From IMG/VR virus record IMGVR_UViG_3300043772_002964, positions 1 through 25,434 of that record: a stretch of DNA of 25,434 nucleotides; one strand, given 5' to 3'. This DNA comes from a virus. Its lineage: Duplodnaviria; Caudoviricetes. Shown here in pieces: positions 3,187 to 24,878 of the stretch (the stretch's first letter is position 1; the number at the start of each line of letters is the position of its first letter). The translations under genes were made by a program, and so were the position numbers. The notes beneath the pieces were generated by a model, which saw only the letters and a program-made list of their open reading frames with translations, ran no database searches and was not told the DNA's origin.

Positions 3187-3450
3187 ATGATACTAACAAT
3201 CTTAATAACGATTTACATACTTTCTTTTTTAAGAATGTACAGATGGACTAAAAATGCATATAGTAAAGATGGTATAATGTATGAGTTTGCGCCTGAATTT
3301 TCAGATTTTTTAGCCACAATATTTCCTGGTGTCAATACATTATTTTCTTTTATTGTAATTAAATATAGTTGGACAGGAAAACTAAACTCAAAAGGTTTTA
3401 AAATCGATCTTTCCAAGTTTCTCTCTAAATTTTTTAATATTAAAAAATGA
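3187..3450 (+). CDS. Small membrane protein
   Basis: 87 aa with two hydrophobic segments; ATGA overlap with the next gene. Confidence 0.75.
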   Translation: MILTILITIYILSFLRMYRWTKNAYSKDGIMYEFAPEFSDFLATIFPGVNTLFSFIVIKYSWTGKLNSKGFKIDLSKFLSKFFNIKK

Positions 3451-4259
3451 AACCACTTCAAATCAACAATAAACATTACCAAGAGTGTGATGTTGTTATG
3501 TTGCAAACCGACAAGGCTGAAAATTCTTTATATGCTTCTTACGATAAGATTTTAAATTATTATAGCGGTCATTTAACTCAAGACTATTTAAAGAATGTTC
3601 TTTTAGCTAAGTCTTATCATCTTTACATTCTATCAAATGATGAAATAAAAAAAGGTGATTGGTTTTTTAGTTCTGAAAACACTATTGAAAAATATATTGG
3701 TTCAATAATGCCTATTTATTTAGATAAAAAAATCATTGCTACTACTGATAGTTCTTTGAAACAAGATTTAGAATATATTAATGGCGGTAAATGCGGAGAA
3801 GTTTGTTTACTACAAATCCCTAAATCATTTATTGAAAAATATATTACCGAACACAACAAAGGTAATGTGATTAGTAACGTGTTGGTTGAAATTGAAGATG
3901 ATTATTCTTCTGTTCCTGAAAATGAAGAAGATATAATATTTCCTTGGAGAGCTTACGTTACTTCTAAAATCAAAGTTAATCAGTCCTATGAAATCTCTAT
4001 TTTAACTAAAAAAAAGACTTTACTATCAAATTTACAATCTGAACTACAAAAATATATTGATAAAAGACACAATCAAGATGAGTGTAGTGGATTTGTTGAT
4101 GGTTTTGAAAGAGCTTGTGAATTAGATAAAGAAAGTTATAGTAGAGAAGAAGTTGTTGCATTACTTGAAAAAATGTTTTATTATGGTGCTGATTGTCAAA
4201 GACAAGGTAATGCACACATAGAATTTTGTGATAGTTGGATTGAACAAAACCTAAAATAA
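3447..4259 (+). CDS. Mosaic family A phage protein (divergent member)
   Basis: Blocks HLYILSNDEIKKGDWFF, KKIIATTD and YSREEV are shared with ORFs 4441 and/or 6094. Confidence 0.85.
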   Translation: MKPLQINNKHYQECDVVMLQTDKAENSLYASYDKILNYYSGHLTQDYLKNVLLAKSYHLYILSNDEIKKGDWFFSSENTIEKYIGSIMPIYLDKKIIATTDSSLKQDLEYINGGKCGEVCLLQIPKSFIEKYITEHNKGNVISNVLVEIEDDYSSVPENEEDIIFPWRAYVTSKIKVNQSYEISILTKKKTLLSNLQSELQKYIDKRHNQDECSGFVDGFERACELDKESYSREEVVALLEKMFYYGADCQRQGNAHIEFCDSWIEQNLK

Positions 4260-4300: not shown

Positions 4301-4444
4301 ATGAGAGAATATAATACAACAGATGATTTCACATTTGAAACACCTTTTGGTAAATTAACTTGTAAAGTTCATTTTGATAAAGGTTATTGGTGGACAACAA
4401 CTAAACTGAGTTACAAATGTGATTCTTTAAAACTTATATTATGA
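4301..4444 (+). CDS. Small hypothetical protein (47 aa)
   Basis: Hand translation MREYNTTDDFTFETPFGKLTCKVHFDKGYWW...; follows a promoter; ATGA overlap with 4441. Confidence 0.6.
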   Translation: MREYNTTDDFTFETPFGKLTCKVHFDKGYWWTTTKLSYKCDSLKLIL

Positions 4445-5088
4445 AAAACTTACATTTATTACCAACAGATAAACCAAGTAGAATATGGGTAAATAATCTT
4501 AGAAGAAGACTTGAGTTAGAAAATGAAAATTTGATAGGTAGTAATACTGCTAAACACATCTACATTACTTCTGATAAAAAAATTAAAAGAGGGGATTATT
4601 TTCTTTCTTTAAATGAGGACGAATCTTATTTAGAAGTAACCTTGAATGATAAAGTAGATGATTTTAATGAATATGCTGATGAAGATTGGGTAGAAAATTG
4701 TAAAAAAATAATCCTAACAACAGACAAAGAACTTATTGCTGATGGTGTACAAGCGATTGATGATGAGTTTTTAGAATGGTTTGTTAATAATTCAAGTTGT
4801 GAGGAGGTTAAGATTGAAGATTATGGGAATTTATATAATTTTAGATATTTAATCCTCATTCCACAAGAAGAACCTAAACAAGAAACACTTGAAGAAGCTG
4901 CAAAACAGTATTCAGAATTAATCCCATATGTTAGTGATATTGTAACTGATAATTCAAGATTAGATTTTATAGCAGGTGCTAAATGGCAAGCCGATGAAAT
5001 CTTCAAATGGTTAGAAAGTAAAGACTACCTAACAGACTCCAAAGATACGATACGAGAAGAATATGACAAAAAACAAAAGTCAAGGTAA
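4441..5088 (+). CDS. Mosaic family A phage protein
   Basis: MKNLHLLPTDKPSR, HIYITSD, CKKIILTTD, DEFLEWFVNN, EPKQETLEEAA, FIAGAKWQ. Confidence 0.9.
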   Translation: MKNLHLLPTDKPSRIWVNNLRRRLELENENLIGSNTAKHIYITSDKKIKRGDYFLSLNEDESYLEVTLNDKVDDFNEYADEDWVENCKKIILTTDKELIADGVQAIDDEFLEWFVNNSSCEEVKIEDYGNLYNFRYLILIPQEEPKQETLEEAAKQYSELIPYVSDIVTDNSRLDFIAGAKWQADEIFKWLESKDYLTDSKDTIREEYDKKQKSR

Positions 5089-6093: not shown

Positions 6094-6963
6094 ATGAAAA
6101 ACTTACATTTATTACCAACAGATAAACCAAGCAGATTACATTATTATTCTGTTTTAAATTTTGGGGTATCTAAAGAAAATTTAAATTGGAAACAAGGTAG
6201 ACACATCTACATCACTTCTGATGAAGAAATTAAAGAAGGTGATTGGTTTTTTAATGGTGAACATATATTACAATGTTCAGATGTTACTGACATTATTATA
6301 GATACAGAAGGTCAATGGAGTACTATTGAAGACTGTAAAAAAATCATCCTAACAACAGACCCAGACCTAATCAAAGATGGTGTACAATCGATTAATGATG
6401 AGTTTTTAGAATGGTTTGTTAATAACCCTACTTGTAATAGTGTTGAAGTTAAATGGGTAAAAACACCTGATGGTATATTTTATCATAAAGACAATGTTCC
6501 TTACGGTTATTATAAAATCATCATTCCACAAGAAGATAAGATTAATCTTAGTGAATCCTTAATGGAACTTAAAGAAGATAACATCCTTGAGATGTTTATA
6601 AACGAACAGGGATATCCTGATGGACCGACACAGGAAGTTTGGTCGAATGGTGTTAGGGAGGGAATAGAATGGTATAGGAAAAAAGATCAAAAAATCATTC
6701 CTAACGATGCCACAGATGTTGAGGTATTTGCAATTAAGGAAGATGCGGATGGTAAACCATTTGCTTATATTGGATACAAAATAAGTAATGGTAATTTCCA
6801 TTTCACTACGGTTCCATTTACTGAACCTAAACAAGAAAAAATGTATACTGAGTCAGAGGTTTTGAAATTATTGGTATCTTGTAAAGATAGATTCGGTGGT
6901 TCTGAGTTATATGACTATACATCCGATAAAGAAGTTATTAATTGGTTTAAAAGACTTAAATAA
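6094..6963 (+). CDS. Mosaic family A phage protein
   Basis: First 38 nt identical to ORF 4441; same conserved blocks; different C-terminal modules. Confidence 0.9.
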   Translation: MKNLHLLPTDKPSRLHYYSVLNFGVSKENLNWKQGRHIYITSDEEIKEGDWFFNGEHILQCSDVTDIIIDTEGQWSTIEDCKKIILTTDPDLIKDGVQSINDEFLEWFVNNPTCNSVEVKWVKTPDGIFYHKDNVPYGYYKIIIPQEDKINLSESLMELKEDNILEMFINEQGYPDGPTQEVWSNGVREGIEWYRKKDQKIIPNDATDVEVFAIKEDADGKPFAYIGYKISNGNFHFTTVPFTEPKQEKMYTESEVLKLLVSCKDRFGGSELYDYTSDKEVINWFKRLK

Positions 6964-8408: not shown

Positions 8409-8780
8409 ATGGAACCTAAACACATAACATTAGAACAATCTAAATGGTTTAAAGAAAAAGGATTTGATGAAAAAGTGAAAAGATTTTTTGATTTAATATC
8501 AAATACAGAAATAGGTGACGCATCATTAGGTAATTATAATTTGACTAAGCAATCTGTTTCTATACCGGAACAACATGAAATAGTTGATTGGTTAAGAGTA
8601 AAACATGATATTTGGATTGGTGTAATGCCTGATGTTGGTATGGATTTAATTTATACCTACAAAATATATTCTGTAGAAGTTGGTGTTGAGAGAGGTTTAG
8701 CAAATGGTAATAATTATGATACACCACAAGAAGCTTACTCAGCTGCGTTTGATTACATTAAAAACAATAATTTGATATAA
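8409..8780 (+). CDS. Family B phage protein
   Basis: MEPKHIT...PEQHEIVDWLRV...AYSAAFDYIKNNNLI. Confidence 0.88.
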   Translation: MEPKHITLEQSKWFKEKGFDEKVKRFFDLISNTEIGDASLGNYNLTKQSVSIPEQHEIVDWLRVKHDIWIGVMPDVGMDLIYTYKIYSVEVGVERGLANGNNYDTPQEAYSAAFDYIKNNNLI

Positions 8781-8785
8781 CACAA

Positions 8786-9181
8786 ATGGAACCTAAATAC
8801 ATAACATTTGAACAAGCTAAATGGCTTAAAGAGAAAGGATTTAACGAACCTTGCGATAGCATTTATAAAGAAGATGGTGAATTTCAATCTTATAAAAATG
8901 TCGGTGATATTAGAACTCATTTTAATAATAGTGAACCAATTAACCCTAAAACTTGGCATAGATATGATACCTCAGCACCAGAACAACATCAAGTAGTAGA
9001 TTGGTTAAGAGTTAATCATGATATTTGGGTTAGTGTTGCTGTAGAAGATGATAAATGGTTTTATGGAATTAAAAAAATCTTTAATCAATATGGAGTTATA
9101 AGTAACGAAATTCCATATAATTCTCCACAAGATGCTTATTCAGCAGCATTTGATTACATTAAAAACAATGATTTGATATGA
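8786..9181 (+). CDS. Family B phage protein (tandem paralog)
   Basis: MEPKYIT...PEQHQVVDWLRV...AYSAAFDYIKNNDLI. Confidence 0.88.
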   Translation: MEPKYITFEQAKWLKEKGFNEPCDSIYKEDGEFQSYKNVGDIRTHFNNSEPINPKTWHRYDTSAPEQHQVVDWLRVNHDIWVSVAVEDDKWFYGIKKIFNQYGVISNEIPYNSPQDAYSAAFDYIKNNDLI

Positions 9182-10949: not shown

Positions 10950-11561
10950 ATGCAAATTGTAACAGACTTTTTAAAAACTTACCGAGGTTGGATTTTCGGT
11001 TTTATTCTAATTATTATCGGAATGAATGGGTGTTCTTCCTATAATACACTCGTCCAAATGAACGAGACAGTTAATTCGAAATGGTCCCAAGTTGAAAACG
11101 TATATCAACGTCGTATGGACCTAATCCCAAATCTTGTCGAGGTTGTCCAAGGGTATGCCGAACACGAGAAATCAACTCTTACCGATGTAATCAACGCAAG
11201 AGCAAAGGCAACCGCGATTACTATTGACGCATCAAAATTGGATGCCAATACCCTTAAACAATTTGAACAAGCCCAAAGTGGTCTAACACAGGCTTTATCA
11301 AAATTGATGGTTGTATCCGAGCGTTATCCCGAACTCAAAGCAAATGAGAATTACCAACAACTAATGTCCGAAGTATCAGGATCCGAAAATCGTATTTCGA
11401 TTGAACGGAAATCATTTAACGATGCCGTTATGGGATACAATAAGAAATTGATGGTTATGCCACGAAAATTATGGGCCAATCTTTTTGGATTCACACCACG
11501 AGAATATTTCAAAGCGGATGCTTCCGCACATGTCGCACCAAAAATCAAAATGACCAAGTAA
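10950..11561 (+). CDS. lemA: LemA family protein
   Basis: N-terminal anchor, YNTLV, WSQVENVYQRRMDLIPNLV, ERYPELKANENY, ENRISIER. Confidence 0.96.
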   Translation: MQIVTDFLKTYRGWIFGFILIIIGMNGCSSYNTLVQMNETVNSKWSQVENVYQRRMDLIPNLVEVVQGYAEHEKSTLTDVINARAKATAITIDASKLDANTLKQFEQAQSGLTQALSKLMVVSERYPELKANENYQQLMSEVSGSENRISIERKSFNDAVMGYNKKLMVMPRKLWANLFGFTPREYFKADASAHVAPKIKMTK

Positions 11562-11562
11562 T

Positions 11563-13377
11563 ATGAAACGTTTAATGTTCTTGTTGGTTTTTTTACCACA
11601 ACTTTTATTCGGACAAACTGATCTCACCCCAAATGAGTGGGTTAACGATTACGCATCAATCCTGAATCAGGACGAAATTCAAAAACTTAATTCCAAGATT
11701 TCAAGTTTTGAAAAACAAACCGATATTGAAATTGCGGTTGCGATTGTATCAACTCTGAATGATAAAGATATTGAGACCTTCTCAAATGAACTATTTAAAA
11801 AATGGGGAGTTGGTAAAAAAGACAGGAACAATGGTTTATTGGTTGTAATTGCTCCTAATGAAAGAAAATGGAGAATTGAGATTGGTTATGGATTGGAACC
11901 TTATTTATCCGACGGTGAATCCCACGAAATGGGAGAGTCCAATTTCAAACCCAACTTTAAGGAAAAACAATACTTCAAAGGTATTGATGGATTTTTAACA
12001 AGTCTGATTTCACATTTGGGAACCTCAACGTGGGATGATAGGGTTGCTTATCAGGAAAAATTAAAGGCCGAGCGCGCGGAAAGTATATCATCATTTTTTT
12101 CAGGACTTTTTTACGTTATCATATCTATCGTAATTTTAATCATCTCAATCGTTACCTTTAAAAGGTTTCGTGAAAAACGTGAACGTGAATTAAAACTGAA
12201 AAAACAGAAGTTAGATTACGTTGGGAAGTATAAGTCGTTATTCGATGGTATTAATGTTAACCGAGCGTTATATAATTTCTCTCCTTTGGTGTATGATCCT
12301 GAAAATGAAAAACTTTTAATGGATTCTAAGGATGAGTATTGGTTGCGTGTAAATTTTGACAAAATTAAATCAACTTTTAATAAAGAACATGAATTGATTT
12401 CGGCAGCATCTAACGTTAATATGTCATTATCATTAGCATTTAATGTTTATGATAAAGTAAAAAAGTTAGAGGAAAAATTTAAACTACCAATTACGGAATT
12501 TCCTGTTGATCTTCTTAAACTTAAAGAAGGTGATAGGAACGATAAGTATAGTGGTGGAGTTAGAGAGATCAATAATCGTACTAAGTTGATTAACGAACAA
12601 ACCAATAAATTCACCGACAGATACCTTGTATTACAAGAATTTAATGATATACTCAATTTAGGTCAATTGAAGATTTCAAAATATGATACTAAAATACTGT
12701 CATTAAGAAATGAAAAGAGATTTACAGACGTTCCATATGGACTTGATGACATTAATGTATATTATGATAATATAAAAGTCGCATATGATAAATTCAACAA
12801 TTCAGAGAAGTCTTTTGTTGATTTGTCAAAACTTAAATCCTTATTAAAGGAGGTCCATACTTCGGAAAATTCTTTTGATAACTACGTTAATTCAGTTGAT
12901 GATAAAAACAGAAACCATGCAAAGATGGTTGAAAAGGTAAATAATTCATCTTCAGAGATTAAAACTCAACACGATAAACTTAAAGGTTATCTAAATAATT
13001 CTGATGTTAGTAGCTCAACAAAATCATTAATTAATTCTTTTGTTGTTACGTTATTGGCTTATCAAGTTACCTCGGATTTAGTGGGGTCATTTAATGGTTT
13101 AAAATCTTTAACTGACAAGACAAATGAATTAATTAATAAGTCAAAAGCTGATATTGAACGGGAAGAGTCAATTAGACGAAAAAAAAGGGAAGAAGAGGAA
13201 CGTAAACGTAGAGAGAAGAAACGTCGGGAAGAAGAGGAAGAGGACAGAAGACGTAGTAGTTACTACTCATCATCTCCATCTTGGGGATCATCGAGTTCGT
13301 CAAGTGACTCATCATCATCTTGGAGTGATTTTGGTGGTGGAGACTCCGGTGGTGGTGGTTCATCAGGTGATTGGTAA
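11563..13377 (+). CDS. TPM-domain (YgcG-like) membrane protein with a long helical insertion
   Basis: Signal peptide; VNDYASIL, WGVGKKDRNNGLL, RIEIGYGLE; one TM; terminal FGGGDSGGGGSSGDW. Confidence 0.92.
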   Translation: MKRLMFLLVFLPQLLFGQTDLTPNEWVNDYASILNQDEIQKLNSKISSFEKQTDIEIAVAIVSTLNDKDIETFSNELFKKWGVGKKDRNNGLLVVIAPNERKWRIEIGYGLEPYLSDGESHEMGESNFKPNFKEKQYFKGIDGFLTSLISHLGTSTWDDRVAYQEKLKAERAESISSFFSGLFYVIISIVILIISIVTFKRFREKRERELKLKKQKLDYVGKYKSLFDGINVNRALYNFSPLVYDPENEKLLMDSKDEYWLRVNFDKIKSTFNKEHELISAASNVNMSLSLAFNVYDKVKKLEEKFKLPITEFPVDLLKLKEGDRNDKYSGGVREINNRTKLINEQTNKFTDRYLVLQEFNDILNLGQLKISKYDTKILSLRNEKRFTDVPYGLDDINVYYDNIKVAYDKFNNSEKSFVDLSKLKSLLKEVHTSENSFDNYVNSVDDKNRNHAKMVEKVNNSSSEIKTQHDKLKGYLNNSDVSSSTKSLINSFVVTLLAYQVTSDLVGSFNGLKSLTDKTNELINKSKADIEREESIRRKKREEEERKRREKKRREEEEEDRRRSSYYSSSPSWGSSSSSSDSSSSWSDFGGGDSGGGGSSGDW

Positions 13378-15926: not shown

Positions 15927-16739
15927 TTATTGAAGTAATTGGTAAAACTCTTTAAAGTGTTTTATACGGTCATTCAACCCGATAGTTCCCCCATTCACTC
16001 TTCTTGTTACTGCCGTCACGGTAGCATCATCAGAACCTTTATCACAAATAGACCAAAGGTTATTACTATTAAAGAAAAACGCTGCAGATGCTAATGGATA
16101 TTTTGATGCAACCAAATCAGGATTTGTAACACAATCTTCACCGATAAATTTAGTGAAGTTTTTATAATTGTCTTTTCCTGTCAATTGTATAAAACCGCGG
16201 CCACGGAATTTAAACCCTTCTTTTGAGGATTCATCGCCATTACCCATTCTACCACCGTAAACTCTTGATGCGATTTTTTCAGGTTGTCTAGCATATGATT
16301 CAGCTAAATTACTTGGAAAGTATTTACCGAAAATCTTTTTAAGACCATCTACCGAATAATTTAAATTCTCATTTACGATTTTAAAGCCTCCACTTTCGTG
16401 AGAACACTGAGCCAAAAAATGAGCCAATCTTAAATTATTTGTTATGTTAAATTTAGAAGCTGTTTCAGGTATTTGAGCCAAAACTGAATCAGGAACATGA
16501 CCTTTAAGTTTTGATATATTCAATCCACTCACAGGTTGAATTACAACATCTTCCTTAATTAGGACCCCAAGTTTCGACAAAGTTGTCGGACCCGCAACTC
16601 CATCAGGAGTTATCCCGTTTTTAGTTTGCCATTCTTTTAATGTTTTTTCTGTTTTAGGACCGAAATCACCATCTGCGGTTAAACCTAATTTTTCTTGTAG
16701 TAATTTTACATCATTACCTTTCATTCCGATTTTTAACAT
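15927..16739 (-). CDS. Modular endolysin: peptidoglycan-binding domain plus GH19 catalytic domain
   Basis: VKLLQEKL..ADGDFGPKT..DGVAGPTT (PG_binding_1); FLAQCSHESGGF, FRGRGFIQLTGKDNY, VNGGTIGLNDR (GH19). Confidence 0.93.
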   Translation of the reverse strand: MLKIGMKGNDVKLLQEKLGLTADGDFGPKTEKTLKEWQTKNGITPDGVAGPTTLSKLGVLIKEDVVIQPVSGLNISKLKGHVPDSVLAQIPETASKFNITNNLRLAHFLAQCSHESGGFKIVNENLNYSVDGLKKIFGKYFPSNLAESYARQPEKIASRVYGGRMGNGDESSKEGFKFRGRGFIQLTGKDNYKNFTKFIGEDCVTNPDLVASKYPLASAAFFFNSNNLWSICDKGSDDATVTAVTRRVNGGTIGLNDRIKHFKEFYQLLQ

Positions 16740-16755
16740 AACTTAAATTTTATTT

Positions 16756-16793
16756 ATAAATATTTCGCCATTATGAAATTTTTAAATATTTAT
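16756..16793. promoter_or_regulatory. Divergent ATATTTAT motifs for the endolysin and the kinase operon
   Basis: Minus copy 16756-16763 (16 nt from endolysin ATG), plus copy 16786-16793 (17 nt from kinase ATG). Confidence 0.55.
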
Positions 16794-16810
16794 TGAAAAA
16801 ATAATACTTA

Positions 16811-18592
16811 ATGACAAAGTTTCAAAGAAGAAGCATTTACTTATCTGCCTTAATTACGATATTATTCCTCTTTTACAAATACTCACTAACGGCGGGTATA
16901 ATTACGCACAATAGATATACTGATTTATTTGAAGTTATTTATTTCCTAACGACATCGGTTATAACATTTAAATTGTTTCACGGCTTAATTACTAGAAATA
17001 GGAAATACGAACAAACCCAACTTAATTCAAAGAAGTTTAATGAGGTGTTATTAAACCAATCATACAACCCTGATTATTATAGTGGAGATATTAATCAGGC
17101 GGCAAAAACTATGACCAGAGAAGCGGTTGATACGTTGGATGCCGATAGATGTTCAGTATGGTTATATAATAAAAGCAGATCGTCGATAACTTGTGTCGAA
17201 TTATATGTGAAATCTGAACTATTATGGTATCAAGATATAAAATTATATAAAAAAGATTATAAACCTTATTTCGATTATATTGAAGTTAACCCAATAATCA
17301 TAGCAAATGATGCGGAGACCCACCCCGCAACAGAATGTTTTACCGAGACATATTTAAAACCTTTAGGTATAAAATCTATGTTGGATGTTCCGATAATATA
17401 CAAGGGTGATGTTTTAGGTGTGGTGTGTATTGAATCATTTGACAAACGTGAATGGACCACCGAGGAACTTAATTTTTCGCAAATGTTATCTTCATTATAC
17501 AGTTTTACACATTCGGTAAATGAGTCAAACAAACTTTCGAATGTTGTTACATCAAAAGAAAATCAAATAATTAACAGGATGAACGCCATAAACCGTTCTA
17601 ATGCGGTTATTGAGTTTGATTTGAATGGTACGGTCCAATTCGCTAATAATATATTTCTAGATTTGATGGGTTATAATTCCGAAGAAATTGTTGGACAACA
17701 CCATAGTATGTTCGTTAGAGATGAAGAAAAAAATTCTAAAGAGTATTCAGATTTTTGGAATAAATTAAAGAAAGGTCAATACTTTTCGGGTGATATTGTT
17801 AGAGTCAAAAAAGATGGTACATTAGTGTATTTAATATCAACATACAATCCTATTGTAAATGAAAACGGTAAAACATATAGGGTAATGAAAATTGCCACAG
17901 ATGTTACATCAAACGTATTACAACAAATAGAAATTGAAAAGAAAAACACTTATTTAGAACATGCGGCAAAAATAATCCGACATGATATGCATTCAGGTAT
18001 TAACACCTATATACCAAGAGGTGTAAGTTCATTAGAAAGACGTTTATCCCCTGATGATATTGAGAAATTGAAGATATCCGCTCCTCTTAAAATGATTAAA
18101 GAAGGATTAATTCATACACAAAAAGTATATAAAGGAGTATACGAATTTACAAATTTAGTTAAAAAAGATGCTATTTTTCATACATCACCTCATGACTTGA
18201 AAGAAATATTAGAAAGTTATTTAACTTCAACATCTTATAAAAGTCAAGTGTTAATTTCTGAACTACCTACGATAGATGTTAATGATTCACTATTTTGTAC
18301 TGCGGTGGATAATTTGATACGTAACGGTCTAAAATATAACGATTCAGACACAAAAGTAATAAAAATATATATGGAATCTGACAACCTATTAATTATTCAA
18401 GATAACGGTAGAGGTATGTCTCAACAAGATTTCGAATATTTATCTAAACCATATGTTAGAAAACAAGATCAAAAAGAAACAGGTACAGGATTGGGGTTAA
18501 ACATTTGTTTAGCCATAATGGAAGAACATGGTTTTAATTTGTATTGTGAGAAAAATGACATAGGTACTAAAATGATAATAAAAATTAAATAA
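16811..18592 (+). CDS. Sensor histidine kinase: 2 TM, GAF, PAS, DHp, HATPase
   Basis: GAF (ADRCSVWLY, GIKSMLDVPI, WTTEE); PAS (AVIEFDLNG, GQHHSMFV, YNPI, ATDVT); H box IIRHDM; N box NLIRNGLKY; G1 DNGRGM; G2 GTGLGL. Confidence 0.95.
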   Translation: MTKFQRRSIYLSALITILFLFYKYSLTAGIITHNRYTDLFEVIYFLTTSVITFKLFHGLITRNRKYEQTQLNSKKFNEVLLNQSYNPDYYSGDINQAAKTMTREAVDTLDADRCSVWLYNKSRSSITCVELYVKSELLWYQDIKLYKKDYKPYFDYIEVNPIIIANDAETHPATECFTETYLKPLGIKSMLDVPIIYKGDVLGVVCIESFDKREWTTEELNFSQMLSSLYSFTHSVNESNKLSNVVTSKENQIINRMNAINRSNAVIEFDLNGTVQFANNIFLDLMGYNSEEIVGQHHSMFVRDEEKNSKEYSDFWNKLKKGQYFSGDIVRVKKDGTLVYLISTYNPIVNENGKTYRVMKIATDVTSNVLQQIEIEKKNTYLEHAAKIIRHDMHSGINTYIPRGVSSLERRLSPDDIEKLKISAPLKMIKEGLIHTQKVYKGVYEFTNLVKKDAIFHTSPHDLKEILESYLTSTSYKSQVLISELPTIDVNDSLFCTAVDNLIRNGLKYNDSDTKVIKIYMESDNLLIIQDNGRGMSQQDFEYLSKPYVRKQDQKETGTGLGLNICLAIMEEHGFNLYCEKNDIGTKMIIKIK

Positions 18593-18603
18593 CCTAACCT
18601 AAA

Positions 18604-19038
18604 ATGATAGAATCAATTTTACTTGTAGACGACGAGGATCTTTTTCACTTAGTTTTTGAAGATGCCTGTTCATTGCTTGAGATAAGTTTATCTCTTAAGT
18701 CAGTTAATAGTTCTGACGAAGCGGCTAAAATGTTTAAACTATGGTATGAAACCAGTAGTAGTGATAAACCTGAATGTGTTTTTGTGGATCTTAATATTAT
18801 AGGTTCTTCTTTTGACGGAATTGAACTTATTAGAAAGATAAATTTTGAGTATGGTAACCACGTTGTTATTGGTATCATATCATCATCTAACGAACCCGAA
18901 GAACAAGCAAAGGCAATACAGGCCGGTGCTCAATTTTGGATTATAAAATCTGACAATATAGAACCGAGATTGGAGGAATTTAAGAAAGATTATGATAATT
19001 ATAAGAATAGAACGGCTCCTTTTAAAATTTACAAATGA
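18604..19038 (+). CDS. Stand-alone response regulator receiver
   Basis: ILLVDDED, phosphoacceptor VFVDLNI, ISSS, AGAQFWIIKS; no output domain. Confidence 0.93.
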   Translation: MIESILLVDDEDLFHLVFEDACSLLEISLSLKSVNSSDEAAKMFKLWYETSSSDKPECVFVDLNIIGSSFDGIELIRKINFEYGNHVVIGIISSSNEPEEQAKAIQAGAQFWIIKSDNIEPRLEEFKKDYDNYKNRTAPFKIYK

Positions 19039-19712
19039 TCTCATTTAATAAACAAACTAAACAACAGTTAATTACCTTATGTAAGACAAGGAATATTTGT
19101 CTTGAGGGGAATATTATTAGGGTTATCGATTATTCCGGTGATACCGAATTTGAACAATATATTAAAACTTGTTTAGATAAAGATAAAGAGGTTAGAAAGA
19201 AGAGATTAGAGATTACCAAACAAGTACAGTCTAAAAATAATGAGTTAATCGATTTAAATAAGGAAAATGAGAGAATAATGCAAGAACTACGAAGTAGTTT
19301 AAAATCTGTCGAAGAGTCTAGGGTAAATTTTGAAGTTCAAAATAAGGAATTAACCTTATGGAAAGAAGAAAATGAAAAGATAAGTTTAGAATTACAACAA
19401 GAAATGTTAAAGTCGGAACAGGCTAGAATAGAAGCGGAAAACGCTAAAAAAACGGCTGAAAACGATTTAGATGTATTGCAAAAAAGAACTCAAACTCAAT
19501 TAATAGAAAGAATAGTTAAAGTTTCATTAGGGGTTATTATGACAGTAGGTGTTATAACAACCTTGATGTATGTGATTGCGTTATTTAATGATAAAGACAC
19601 TCAGATGATAGGTTCTACTTGGTCAAACATGTTAGGTATTTTACTAACAAACGCATTTAGTATTATAGGAACTATTATGGGTGTTAAATACGCATCTAAA
19701 GAAACAGAATGA
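19035..19712 (+). CDS. Coiled-coil protein with two C-terminal TM helices
   Basis: Long E/K/Q-rich heptad region then two hydrophobic segments; ATGA overlap with the receiver gene. Confidence 0.8.
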   Translation: MISFNKQTKQQLITLCKTRNICLEGNIIRVIDYSGDTEFEQYIKTCLDKDKEVRKKRLEITKQVQSKNNELIDLNKENERIMQELRSSLKSVEESRVNFEVQNKELTLWKEENEKISLELQQEMLKSEQARIEAENAKKTAENDLDVLQKRTQTQLIERIVKVSLGVIMTVGVITTLMYVIALFNDKDTQMIGSTWSNMLGILLTNAFSIIGTIMGVKYASKETE

Positions 19713-23042: not shown

Positions 23043-23468
23043 TTACATAACTTCAACGACCTCTAAATCGAAAAATAATTTCTTTCCTGCCAAAGGATGG
23101 TTTGCGTCAAGTACTGCGGTTGTTTCTTTAAGTTCTTTAACTGTAACGTTAAATACCCCTTGAGGTCCGCTGGCTTGCAACATCATACCTTCAAAGATAT
23201 CTTCAGGTAATACTGATTTCTCAACCTCTTGATACATGTCTTCATTTACATCACCATACGCTTCGGTAGGTTCAATTTCAATTGTCTTGGTTTCCCCAAC
23301 TGACATATCAATTAGACCTTTTTCAAAACCAGGAATTAGCTGTCCTTGACCCAAAGTGACAGTTAAAGGTTGTCTACCCTCAACCATAGATGAGTCAAAT
23401 ACTGAACCATCTTCAAATTTACCTGTGTAATTAACTTTTACGGTATCCCCGTTTTCTATTTTTTTCAT
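23043..23468 (-). CDS. FKBP-type peptidyl-prolyl isomerase, SlyD/SlpA-like, no His-rich tail
   Basis: VKVNYTG, GSVFDSS, GQLIPGFE, AYG, DANHPLAGK; ATG 23468 preferred over TTG 23486. Confidence 0.93.
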   Translation of the reverse strand: MKKIENGDTVKVNYTGKFEDGSVFDSSMVEGRQPLTVTLGQGQLIPGFEKGLIDMSVGETKTIEIEPTEAYGDVNEDMYQEVEKSVLPEDIFEGMMLQASGPQGVFNVTVKELKETTAVLDANHPLAGKKLFFDLEVVEVM

Positions 23469-23540
23469 ATTCTTAATTTTTAACAATCATAAAAATAAAA
23501 AATTGTTTTATCAACACATGTTACGATATATTTATTAGTT

Positions 23541-24425
23541 ATGGATATAATAATCAAAGAAAGTCAATTAAATAGGTTGATAGAACAAGTTAAAATTGAC
23601 AAGGTTGAAAAACTTGCCGATGATGTTTATAATGCAACATCAGGAGTTGGTACTGATGAACAAAAAGTATATAACACACTAAGACAAATTAATAATGTTC
23701 GTTTGTTCGTTCAATTTAATACTAAACTCATATCAAAATATAAGGAAAGTTTTTATGAAATCGTAAATGCTACGATGGAATTTACCGAATCTGAAAAAAA
23801 CGAGATCGTTTCAATTTTAAATCAAAATGGTATTCCTCATATAATAAACTCTGAAGGTGATGTTCAATATAACAAACCTAAGATAAATAAACCAAATACA
23901 AATCTACAAAGTGTAAATAACTTATCACCGTCGGAAGAACTTATTAATTTCTTAAAATGTGAAGAAGGTAAGGTGGGATCTAAATGTCAACCTGTGTTAC
24001 AATCATATAGAATACCCGGTGATGTTTGGACCATAGGATGGGGACACACAGGTGAATATGCAAAACCTAAAAGTAAGATTAATCCGACCCAAGCGGAGAA
24101 AATTTTAAGGAGAGATACAAATACCGCTTCGGAATGCGTTAAGAGGATATTTTCAGAATGGCAAAATAAAAATATCAATAGACCCATCACCCAAAGTATG
24201 TTCGACTCATTAACCTCATTAGCATTTAATGCCGGTTGTGGTTCCTTGAGGGGGACTAGTTCTAAAGGAGAACTAATTGATTACGTTAAAGAAGGTAATT
24301 TTGCCGAGGCGGCAAATTTGATAACCAACTTTAACGCAAACAAACCAGGTTTCTCAGGTTTAAAGAAAAGACGAGAGAAGGAAAAACAAATGTTCTGTAA
24401 AGAAGGCGGTTGCCAAAAATCATAA
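23541..24425 (+). CDS. Annexin-like repeat fused to a GH24 phage lysozyme
   Basis: VYNATSGVGTDEQKVY (GxGTDE); EEG..WTIGWGHT, TQSMFDSLTSLAFNAG, GLKKRREKE (GH24); ATATTTAT at 23528-23535. Confidence 0.82.
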   Translation: MDIIIKESQLNRLIEQVKIDKVEKLADDVYNATSGVGTDEQKVYNTLRQINNVRLFVQFNTKLISKYKESFYEIVNATMEFTESEKNEIVSILNQNGIPHIINSEGDVQYNKPKINKPNTNLQSVNNLSPSEELINFLKCEEGKVGSKCQPVLQSYRIPGDVWTIGWGHTGEYAKPKSKINPTQAEKILRRDTNTASECVKRIFSEWQNKNINRPITQSMFDSLTSLAFNAGCGSLRGTSSKGELIDYVKEGNFAEAANLITNFNANKPGFSGLKKRREKEKQMFCKEGGCQKS

Positions 24426-24878
24426 CCATTTAGGTGTATGACCATTTTTCCAAACAAGTAAATCTTTCTTACCTTCCCTGTAATAATTACGATAAGACTC
24501 CACAACATCATCCACTTTATATTCATCAGGCATCGCCTTCGCATATTGAGTCAAACCTATGTCGGGGATATTGGGTTTATTTGACAAACACCATTCTAAT
24601 ACGGATTTACTCTTATGTACTTTACCATATCGTTTTTGGTATTCATCACATAAGGCAAAACCCAAATCATTTAACCATACATAGTTTGAATATGACTCAC
24701 GAGCCCATATTGAACAAGGATGGTTTTTATGACTTAATTTGTAAGGAGCCTCTCCTCCCGAAACCCAATGCACACCACATAAAAGTTGTGACGTTTCCAA
24801 TATCATTTTTACGCAGTGTTTATCGCAATGGTCTTTTGCACACTCGTTCACATCTAAATTTAATACGAAAATATTCAT
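24420..24878 (-). CDS. Pyrimidine-dimer DNA glycosylase / T4 endonuclease V-like protein
   Basis: MNIFVL..A..HCDKH.VKMILE..QLL, HKNHPCSIW, EY..RYGK.H, AMPDEYK, YRNYY; activity not verified. Confidence 0.78.
   Translation of the reverse strand: MNIFVLNLDVNECAKDHCDKHCVKMILETSQLLCGVHWVSGGEAPYKLSHKNHPCSIWARESYSNYVWLNDLGFALCDEYQKRYGKVHKSKSVLEWCLSNKPNIPDIGLTQYAKAMPDEYKVDDVVESYRNYYREGKKDLLVWKNGHTPKWL

Follow-up and report, generated by a model that had tools for sequence, protein, structure and literature searches.

Receivers that consist of a single domain and act by protein contact are familiar from the CheA-CheY and DivK pathways. Here we describe a virus-encoded counterpart of this arrangement. 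It lies in IMG/VR record IMGVR_UViG_3300043772_002964 (Duplodnaviria; Caudoviricetes), whose positions 1 to 25,434 represent the stretch of DNA that was analysed, hereafter called the window. The cassette comprises three consecutive genes for a sensor histidine kinase, a single-domain receiver and a protein with two C-terminal membrane helices (ORF 19035), and it is oriented divergently from the gene of a GH19 endolysin. As in the CheA-CheY and DivK pathways, a kinase with GAF/PAS input is combined with an output-less receiver and likely with a protein target. Unlike in these pathways, the kinase has an H-box type of its own and the gene of the likely target, an undescribed protein made of head, stalk and membrane hairpin, is translationally coupled to the receiver gene. 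As detailed below, the cassette is a two-component relay that is borne by phages, occurs widely and ends in a modular membrane output not described before, and the balance of the evidence tips slightly towards a role in the timing of lysis.

Known lysis clocks are set by the build-up of holin and, in T4, by superinfection. Lysis inhibition of T4, involving holin T and the antiholins RI and RIII, resembles what we propose for the cassette in that a dedicated holin regulator delays endolysin release in a lytic myovirus. Its signal is superinfection, and the accessible text of the source describes no phosphorelay (PMC11413866). The cassette differs from it by lack of homology (PF11031 in none of five relatives) and by its proposed kinase-receiver input with cytoplasmic sensors. 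The LytSR system of staphylococci with LrgAB/CidAB is likewise a two-component system that is tied to the energy state and has antiholin-like membrane proteins as neighbours. It is chromosomal and, according to the accessible part of the source, LytSR activates lrgAB transcription (PMC2996381), whereas in the cassette the membrane proteins are unrelated and the link would be direct and post-translational. Finally, phage phiCDHM1 shares with our locus a phage kinase gene placed just after the lysis genes, namely the AgrC gene of agr3 (PHROG 857, 731). This phage is temperate, and the available text assigns its kinase, which comes without a receiver, to peptide quorum sensing with proposed signalling through the host (PMC3901668). 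No description of a phage-encoded two-component system was found in the literature searched, which was mostly non-subscription. The accessible part of a survey of jumbo phages mentions receiver domains only outside kinase systems (PMC7824862), and no system of this kind appears in that of a review on phage communication from 2026 (PMC13389391).

Composition and distribution of the cassette

The kinase gene (16811-18592, plus strand) encodes 593 residues, in which Pfam recognizes a GAF domain (93-229), a PAS domain (265-366) and a HATPase_c domain (496-592; PF02518, E 4e-14), preceded by two weak hydrophobic segments (13-31 and ~40-60). In the dimerization and histidine phosphotransfer (DHp) helix, the sequence RHDMHSG contains the putative phospho-acceptor H391. 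The ATPase domain has intact N, G1, F and G2 boxes (at 501, 531, 544 and 558). The H-box RHDMHSGI is present in 100 of 104 distinct kinases and no HisKA match was obtained in Pfam; judged by these sequence features, the enzyme is an unprofiled histidine kinase subtype. The receiver gene (18604-19038, plus strand, 144 residues) starts 11 nt after the kinase gene. Its product matches Response_reg (PF00072) above cut-off, has no output domain and carries the catalytic residues D9, D10, S93, K115 and the phospho-acceptor D62. The nearest natural solved structure is 3ILH, and all four catalytic motifs are retained in 80 of 80 distinct full-length relatives. The stop codon of the receiver gene overlaps the start of ORF 19035 (19035-19712, plus strand, 225 residues) in an ATGA. 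A preliminary description of the window had named an intact GAF-PAS kinase, an output-less receiver and a coupled coiled-coil protein with two C-terminal membrane helices, all of which stands.

The cassette genes and the endolysin gene are real and under strong purifying selection. In comparisons with four relatives that have the kinase and two that lack it, the kinase gave dN/dS values of 0.057-0.067, ORF 19035 of 0.023-0.083 and the endolysin of 0.056-0.105. The receiver gave 0.017-0.039 and three neighbouring hypothetical genes 0.16-0.38, each with one saturated comparison.

Searches yielded 6025 matches for ORF 19035 and 3860 for the receiver, and atlas clusters were 96-100% viral. Two patterns matched ~920 and ~650 viral stretches, respectively, from each of which the best 80 were taken; upon removal of 32 duplicate contigs, 142 non-redundant loci resulted, the window included. 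The trio is present in 117 of these loci (115 as called, two with an intact receiver missed by the gene caller), confirming that the order of the three genes is conserved across phages. The other 25 loci are cut by the contig end (18), frameshifted (one), kinase-less (three), or encode a fusion of a PAS domain to the hairpin (three). The kinase-less loci belong to one related lineage of three contigs (L009, L013, L014), in which the kinase is absent next to the receiver. No kinase was found on these contigs, which are 5-13% complete; the longest contig found for the lineage measures 39.6 kb. Their receiver keeps all catalytic residues and is under selection, and hence the receiver may also be supplied with phosphate by a kinase encoded elsewhere in the phage genome, by the host's kinases or by a small phosphodonor.

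The kinase input differs among loci, being GAF-PAS, PAS-PAS, GAF-PAS-PAS or PAS, often complemented by a second membrane kinase. The latter occurs in many cassettes (L055, L076, L098, L172 and others), has a membrane segment but no PAS or GAF domain, and is usually encoded behind an uncharacterised 200-aa gene (family f19), which suggests a periplasmic input to the same receiver. In five of five large contigs of relatives, the genome contains exactly one receiver together with one or two kinases. As a consequence, no DNA-binding regulator was found for the signal in these contigs, in agreement with the non-transcriptional circuit postulated initially.

The window is a virus record that is ~9% complete. 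Relatives reach 290-322 kb. A Gp23 T4-type capsid protein is encoded in all five large contigs and bS21 in four of them; in three of three near-complete ones, the bS21 gene precedes the capsid gene by a few kb and has the opposite orientation. In these traits the relatives resemble the freshwater jumbo phages of Bacteroidetes that carry bS21. The main text on those phages, as far as accessible, does not mention a kinase or two-component system, and in the supplement a single kinase and a single PAS annotation appear with no further remark (PMC9723584). The window differs in lacking the Gp23 and bS21 marker genes: its 25-kb contig does not extend to that region, and no bS21 match was obtained in the 95-kb nearest relative. 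Several cassettes have as neighbour a gene whose product contains a type IX secretion C-terminal domain. On the basis of the match to bS21 phages, the type IX secretion domain and two chromosomal relatives in Bacteroidetes, the carriers, for the most part T4-like jumbo phages, likely infect Bacteroidota. The Bacteroidota promoter pattern TAnnTTTG was left out of this assignment because it is not enriched (49 copies vs 41.6 expected; 36 sense vs 41 antisense copies upstream of genes). A distant cassette (L090:9377-13812), located on a phage-like contig from a Bdellovibrionota bin, adjoins a PrkA-SpoVR-DUF444 operon.

Chromosomal copies are rare, as four scans of 185,579 species genomes returned 0, 6, 2 and 8 loci, most of which look like mis-binned phage contigs when read from their gene content. 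Compared with ~650-920 viral stretches, this bears out that the cassette is not mainly chromosomal. Two loci in Bacteroidetes have host-type surroundings. One (L208) consists of an interrupted kinase gene and a receiver gene without the third gene. The other (L205:3756-7137) encodes a three-PAS kinase, a receiver and then a coupled protein with head, coiled coil and histidine kinase, possibly forming a kinase-receiver-kinase cascade that operates by protein contact. This head-kinase falls into a cluster of 8 members from 2 contigs. Sampling of 401 genomes from the phylum and of 61 relatives yielded one occurrence each, both times the original one. In an unrooted kinase-receiver tree, the two bacterial copies group with each other (support 99) and fall outside a jumbo-phage clade of 41 rows (support 97).

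ORF 19035 as likely output of the relay

ORF 19035 has no Pfam family. In its AlphaFold model (pLDDT 85.7, pTM 0.35), a small head is joined to a single long helix that spans residues 37-184, and a last helix (190-223) turns back. This corresponds to three predicted modules: the head (~residues 1-66; 19035-19232, plus strand), a coiled-coil stalk (19233-19484) and a membrane hairpin of two helices joined by a short loop (19485-19712), likely representing the output. The hydrophobic segments span residues 165-183 and 199-217, and an N-in/C-in topology is predicted from hydropathy and flanking charge only. The second helix is nearly invariant (mean conservation 0.92 over 32 rows) and displays a small/polar face composed of G201, T205, N206, S209, G212, T213 and G216, and a GxxxG motif. 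At 50% identity, the hairpin family comprises 119 representatives.

Both head and hairpin are present in 253 of 329 distinct sequences. The spacing between them is equal modulo 7 in 244 of the 253, over 9 lengths; 199 sequences have the modal length and 45 of the remaining 54 are still in heptad register. Stalks thus differ among relatives by whole heptads, a pattern that shows the predicted stalk to be a continuous coiled coil, through which a signal could be carried.

The modules on either side of the stalk are exchanged. At one end, a PAS domain takes the place of the head in L092-L094, P0249, P0259, P0262, P0336 and P0339, with the hairpin following 49 or 84 residues after the PAS end. At the other end, the first 118 residues of the L205 head-kinase match ORF 19035 (36% identity, E 3e-20), but the protein terminates in HisKA and HATPase_c domains. 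Judging from these sequences, the head can be exchanged for PAS on the input side and the hairpin for a kinase on the output side. Long hairpin fusions to SOUL, TsaD, glycosyltransferase, Rpb1 and FecCD look like assembly chimeras and were disregarded; a single GAF-hairpin fusion (P0246) may be a chimera, too.

As the head is swapped for PAS and follows the receiver onto another kinase, it is likely the target of the receiver and hence its binding and input module. In viral loci with visible flank the receiver is always followed by a head, and in 125 of 128 pairs the receiver gene shares its last 4 or 1 nt with ORF 19035. When the receiver was co-folded with two copies of residues 1-120 of ORF 19035, the score was 0.55 as compared to 0.26 for the best control, with a partner pLDDT of at least 85 and at least 91% agreement of contacts between runs. 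Whereas 116 of 157 solved pairs and 2 of 215 mismatched ones attained the mark, those that did so with a score no higher than 0.60 were just 18 of the solved pairs and both of the mismatched ones, so that the model lends weak support to the receiver-head contact. Together, domain swaps and co-fold make contact with ORF 19035 the most likely mode of action of the receiver, as had been suspected from the window.

The PHROGs matches of ORF 19035 are uncharacterised phage proteins only. Neither ORF 19035 nor the receiver has a match in 50,697 GenBank phage records (annotated isolates). The ORF 19035 model has no fold match in the PDB and BFVD returned one uncharacterised phage homologue only, while the hairpin profile remained without a match among solved sequences. 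Directly after ORF 19035, another membrane protein with two helices is often encoded (family f12; L057:2330-2869 and 25 other loci), whose tail is acidic and rich in proline. Homology of f12 to the hairpin is unsupported (probability 0.06%, E 0.76, with only 4 rows on the f12 side).

Linkage to lysins and the divergent spacer

The endolysin gene (15927-16739, minus strand) encodes 270 residues with an N-terminal PG_binding_1 domain (PF01471, E 1e-11) and a GH19 domain (PF00182, E 2e-9) and matches the endolysin family phrog_181 (E 9e-68). No signal, anchor or hydrophobic segment was detected in the protein. An endolysin without anchor needs a large hole, and its release would consequently depend on a holin. 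A spacer of 71 nt (16740-16810) separates the gene from the divergent kinase gene, exactly as originally delimited.

To quantify the linkage, 137 loci were grouped into 71 clusters at 95% identity, of which 56 have 1.5 kb of flank on both sides and 15 were dropped. A GH19 gene is located within 1.5 kb in 35 of the 56 clusters (17 of 29 when clustered at 80%), and another putative lysin takes its place in four. GH19 is divergent and upstream in 18 clusters, as in the window, co-directional and downstream in 16, and co-directional and upstream in one, whereas the next best of 19 frequent neighbour families reaches 12 of 56, each family keeping to one position. On the tree, the two GH19 layouts need at least 4 and 7 changes, of which well-supported branches force 3 and 4. 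Hence, the association with lysins expected from the window is real across phages and survives rearrangement, although the divergent layout that had been emphasized is only one of two common ones. In four of the five large contigs, the only close GH19 match is situated beside the cassette; the fifth offers no more than a weak match at a distance of several kb. At the loci encoding PAS-hairpin fusions, a lysin lies within 0.5 kb in three of three cases, in one of them followed by a holin-family gene.

No holin family matched the proteins of the window (37 in Pfam, 30 in PHROGs) or emerged from a whole-contig search with Pam3-gp28. A Pam3-gp28-type holin is encoded in four of the five large relatives, adjacent in one and ~20-36 kb away in three, but was not seen in five short contigs of the window's clade. 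Since relatives possess a separate holin, the missing holin beside the endolysin, which the preliminary description had taken as a pointer to ORF 19035, is no argument for ORF 19035 being the holin. A membrane-anchored GAF-like protein (family f33) is encoded at 18 loci (e.g. L018:8692-9303 and L187:2589-3197) and, in G002, directly behind the Pam3-type holin gene. Its architecture is that of T4 holin T, though no profile matched. A relationship of this protein to holin T was rejected (PF11031 in none of five contigs, no PDB match).

In the spacer, the motif ATATTTAT occurs once per direction (16786-16793 on the plus and 16756-16763 on the minus strand). Across the window it is not enriched, with 11 copies vs 8.4 +/- 2.9 expected. 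In related loci, its core TATTTAT was found in 332 of 1505 upstream regions, as compared to 237 antisense and 26 in-gene controls, and its positions peak 11-13 and 21-27 nt before the gene start. In two large relatives it precedes 113 of 445 genes, among them in both the immediate upstream neighbour of the major capsid gene; in a third relative it precedes the capsid gene itself. Judged by position and sequence, other marked genes presumably encode terminase, portal and tail sheath. The motif is thus likely a general, probably late, phage promoter, and the spacer likely contains promoters of the late class. The presence of one copy per direction had been noted correctly, whereas a role as switch between cassette and endolysin is not borne out. 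Scans for sigma-70 promoters and terminators remained at chance level. In the kinase-less lineage, the spacer between endolysin and receiver genes comprises 85 nt with two copies of the motif facing the endolysin.

Candidate roles of the cassette and neighbouring genes

According to our working model, the kinase would sense the redox or energy state of the infected cell and phosphorylate the receiver, which would then bind the head of ORF 19035. The coiled-coil stalk would pass the signal from head to hairpin, and the latter would act as antiholin-like brake on a separately encoded candidate holin, thereby setting the time at which the neighbouring endolysin is released. We estimate the probability of this complete relay, including the braking of a separate holin, at about 0.4. 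Phosphotransfer from kinase to receiver is highly probable and action of the receiver on the head probable, while the odds lean only a little towards the hairpin acting on lysis.

The signal read by the kinase is the least certain step. The best solved matches of the PAS domain are MmoS, Aer and NifL (E 3e-13 to 2e-10), and W316 occupies the alignment column of the Trp that is conserved in 8DIK, 2GJ3 and 3EWK. In FAD-type PAS domains, according to the accessible text, a Trp on helix F-alpha is the primary FAD determinant, complemented in PAS clusters 4 and 14 by a secondary Asn (PMC10468136). With the sensors Aer, NifL, MmoS and AerC, the domain therefore has the conserved Trp in common and differs by Arg331 in the column of the flavin Asn. 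By sequence it is not of Aer/NifL type but may be a cluster 9 FAD PAS. The domain presumably belongs with the PAS domains of BdlA/McpS, the BdlA likeness having been named at the outset. For BdlA-type domains FAD is predicted in the accessible part of PMC8694187. Of the redox-sensor likeness claimed in the preliminary description, the Trp is kept and the Asn is not. PAS domains of the Asn type are present in 52 of 79 related phage kinases, added or used instead.

Several observations weigh against the proposed relay. Besides Arg331, these are the absence of the adjacent kinase from one lineage, where the endolysin gene diverges straight from the receiver gene, and the lack of any match of the hairpin or ORF 19035 to a holin or antiholin family or fold in Pfam, NCBIfam, the lysis classes of PHROGs, PDB sequences and Foldseek. 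Moreover, 17 of the 56 clusters have none of three scored lysin types within 1.5 kb, and a complete 322-kb relative combines the full trio with a weak GH19-like gene (E 1.6e-6) several kb off. Late envelope genes can cluster without joint action, and a motif common to many phage genes indicates no special tie between cassette and endolysin. These data could also be accommodated if the relay were real and the hairpin controlled another membrane process, such as superinfection exclusion or the adjustment of a host transporter or of a respiratory complex, the endolysin being nearby through clustering of late envelope genes. Holins vary fast, and the near-invariant second helix (0.92) suggests a fixed, conserved partner. 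We nevertheless regard this scenario as somewhat less likely than the working model, as none of the other 19 families tallied accompanies the cassette in two opposite arrangements that are about equally frequent, and PAS-hairpin fusions from other virus backgrounds lie beside lysins in all three cases.

If the target is lysis, ORF 19035 might itself be the lesion, the receiver gating oligomerisation of the hairpin into a hole or a depolarising pore. The hairpin follows the pattern of class II holins and pinholins, having two membrane helices, a predicted N-in/C-in topology and a small-residue zipper in the second helix, whose small/polar face and GxxxG motif recall the glycine zipper that the accessible text describes for TMD2 of pinholin S21-68 (PMC9025707). 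In addition, the endolysin gene is situated directly downstream in 16 of 56 clusters, the usual holin position. On the other hand, pinholins are partnered by signal-anchor-release endolysins, a type to which the GH19 enzyme does not belong, so that small pinholes could not release it. The separate holin family in four of five large relatives and the cytoplasmic stalk of 150 residues, a feature not known from pinholins, also make a hole formed by ORF 19035 itself unlikely. It is more improbable still that kinase and receiver target the signalling of the host, donating or draining phosphate, with ORF 19035 as a mere co-expressed neighbour. Persistence of the receiver without adjacent kinase and the host regulator proposed as target of the phiCDHM1 kinase in the accessible text of PMC3901668 would fit such a role, but in viral loci with visible flank the receiver never occurs without a head behind it, and the head follows it into a bacterial genome with a different output, even though one chromosomal copy (L208) lacks the head protein. 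Recent capture of a chromosomal two-component module, as passenger or in decay, is largely refuted. While the two Bacteroidetes genome bins L205 and L208 carry the same kinase-receiver subfamily in host-type surroundings, ~650-920 viral stretches stand against 2-8 loci per scan of 185,579 species genomes, ORF 19035 was found in 1 of 401 sampled genomes of the phylum, the dN/dS of the trio is 0.02-0.07, and the bacterial pair branches as its own clade outside the phage clade of the unrooted tree.

Should the proposed relay be correct, a complete two-component pathway acting on a membrane protein encoded beside the endolysin gene would provide lytic phages with an active, signal-dependent burst decision, a categorically new kind of lysis control. 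Abundant lake phages with likely Bacteroidota hosts would make use of it, in a habitat whose oxygen and energy change with depth. We consider it an even bet that lytic jumbo phages read the redox or energy state of the host through a phosphorylation circuit of their own and, without a change in transcription, gate lysis mechanically by means of a new class of effector built of coiled coil and membrane hairpin, simpler phages having fused PAS onto the hairpin. Even without lysis as target, the head provides a new candidate for a module that binds receivers and the hairpin a new family of signal outputs, and the parts of the cassette are small and testable in a laboratory strain.

Searches of the window for tRNAs and Rfam families gave no match. 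At a distance of 3.8 kb downstream of the cassette (23541-24425, plus strand), the window encodes a second lytic enzyme. It is a phage lysozyme (PF00959, E 1.5e-22) whose N-terminal stretch is annexin-like; its gene has the motif ATATTTAT upstream and is present throughout the window's clade. A coupled pair of genes for LemA and a TPM-domain membrane protein (10950-13377, plus strand) represents a host-type envelope module on a phage. Three paralogues (3447-4259, 4441-5088 and 6094-6963) match phrog_15656, a family of unknown function, and two further paralogues (8409-9181) match phrog_12005. A YceI-like protein is encoded at 218-745, and in some relatives YceI is inserted between endolysin and kinase. 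Finally, the window contains genes for an FKBP-type isomerase (23043-23486) and a pyrimidine-dimer glycosylase-like protein (24420-24878).

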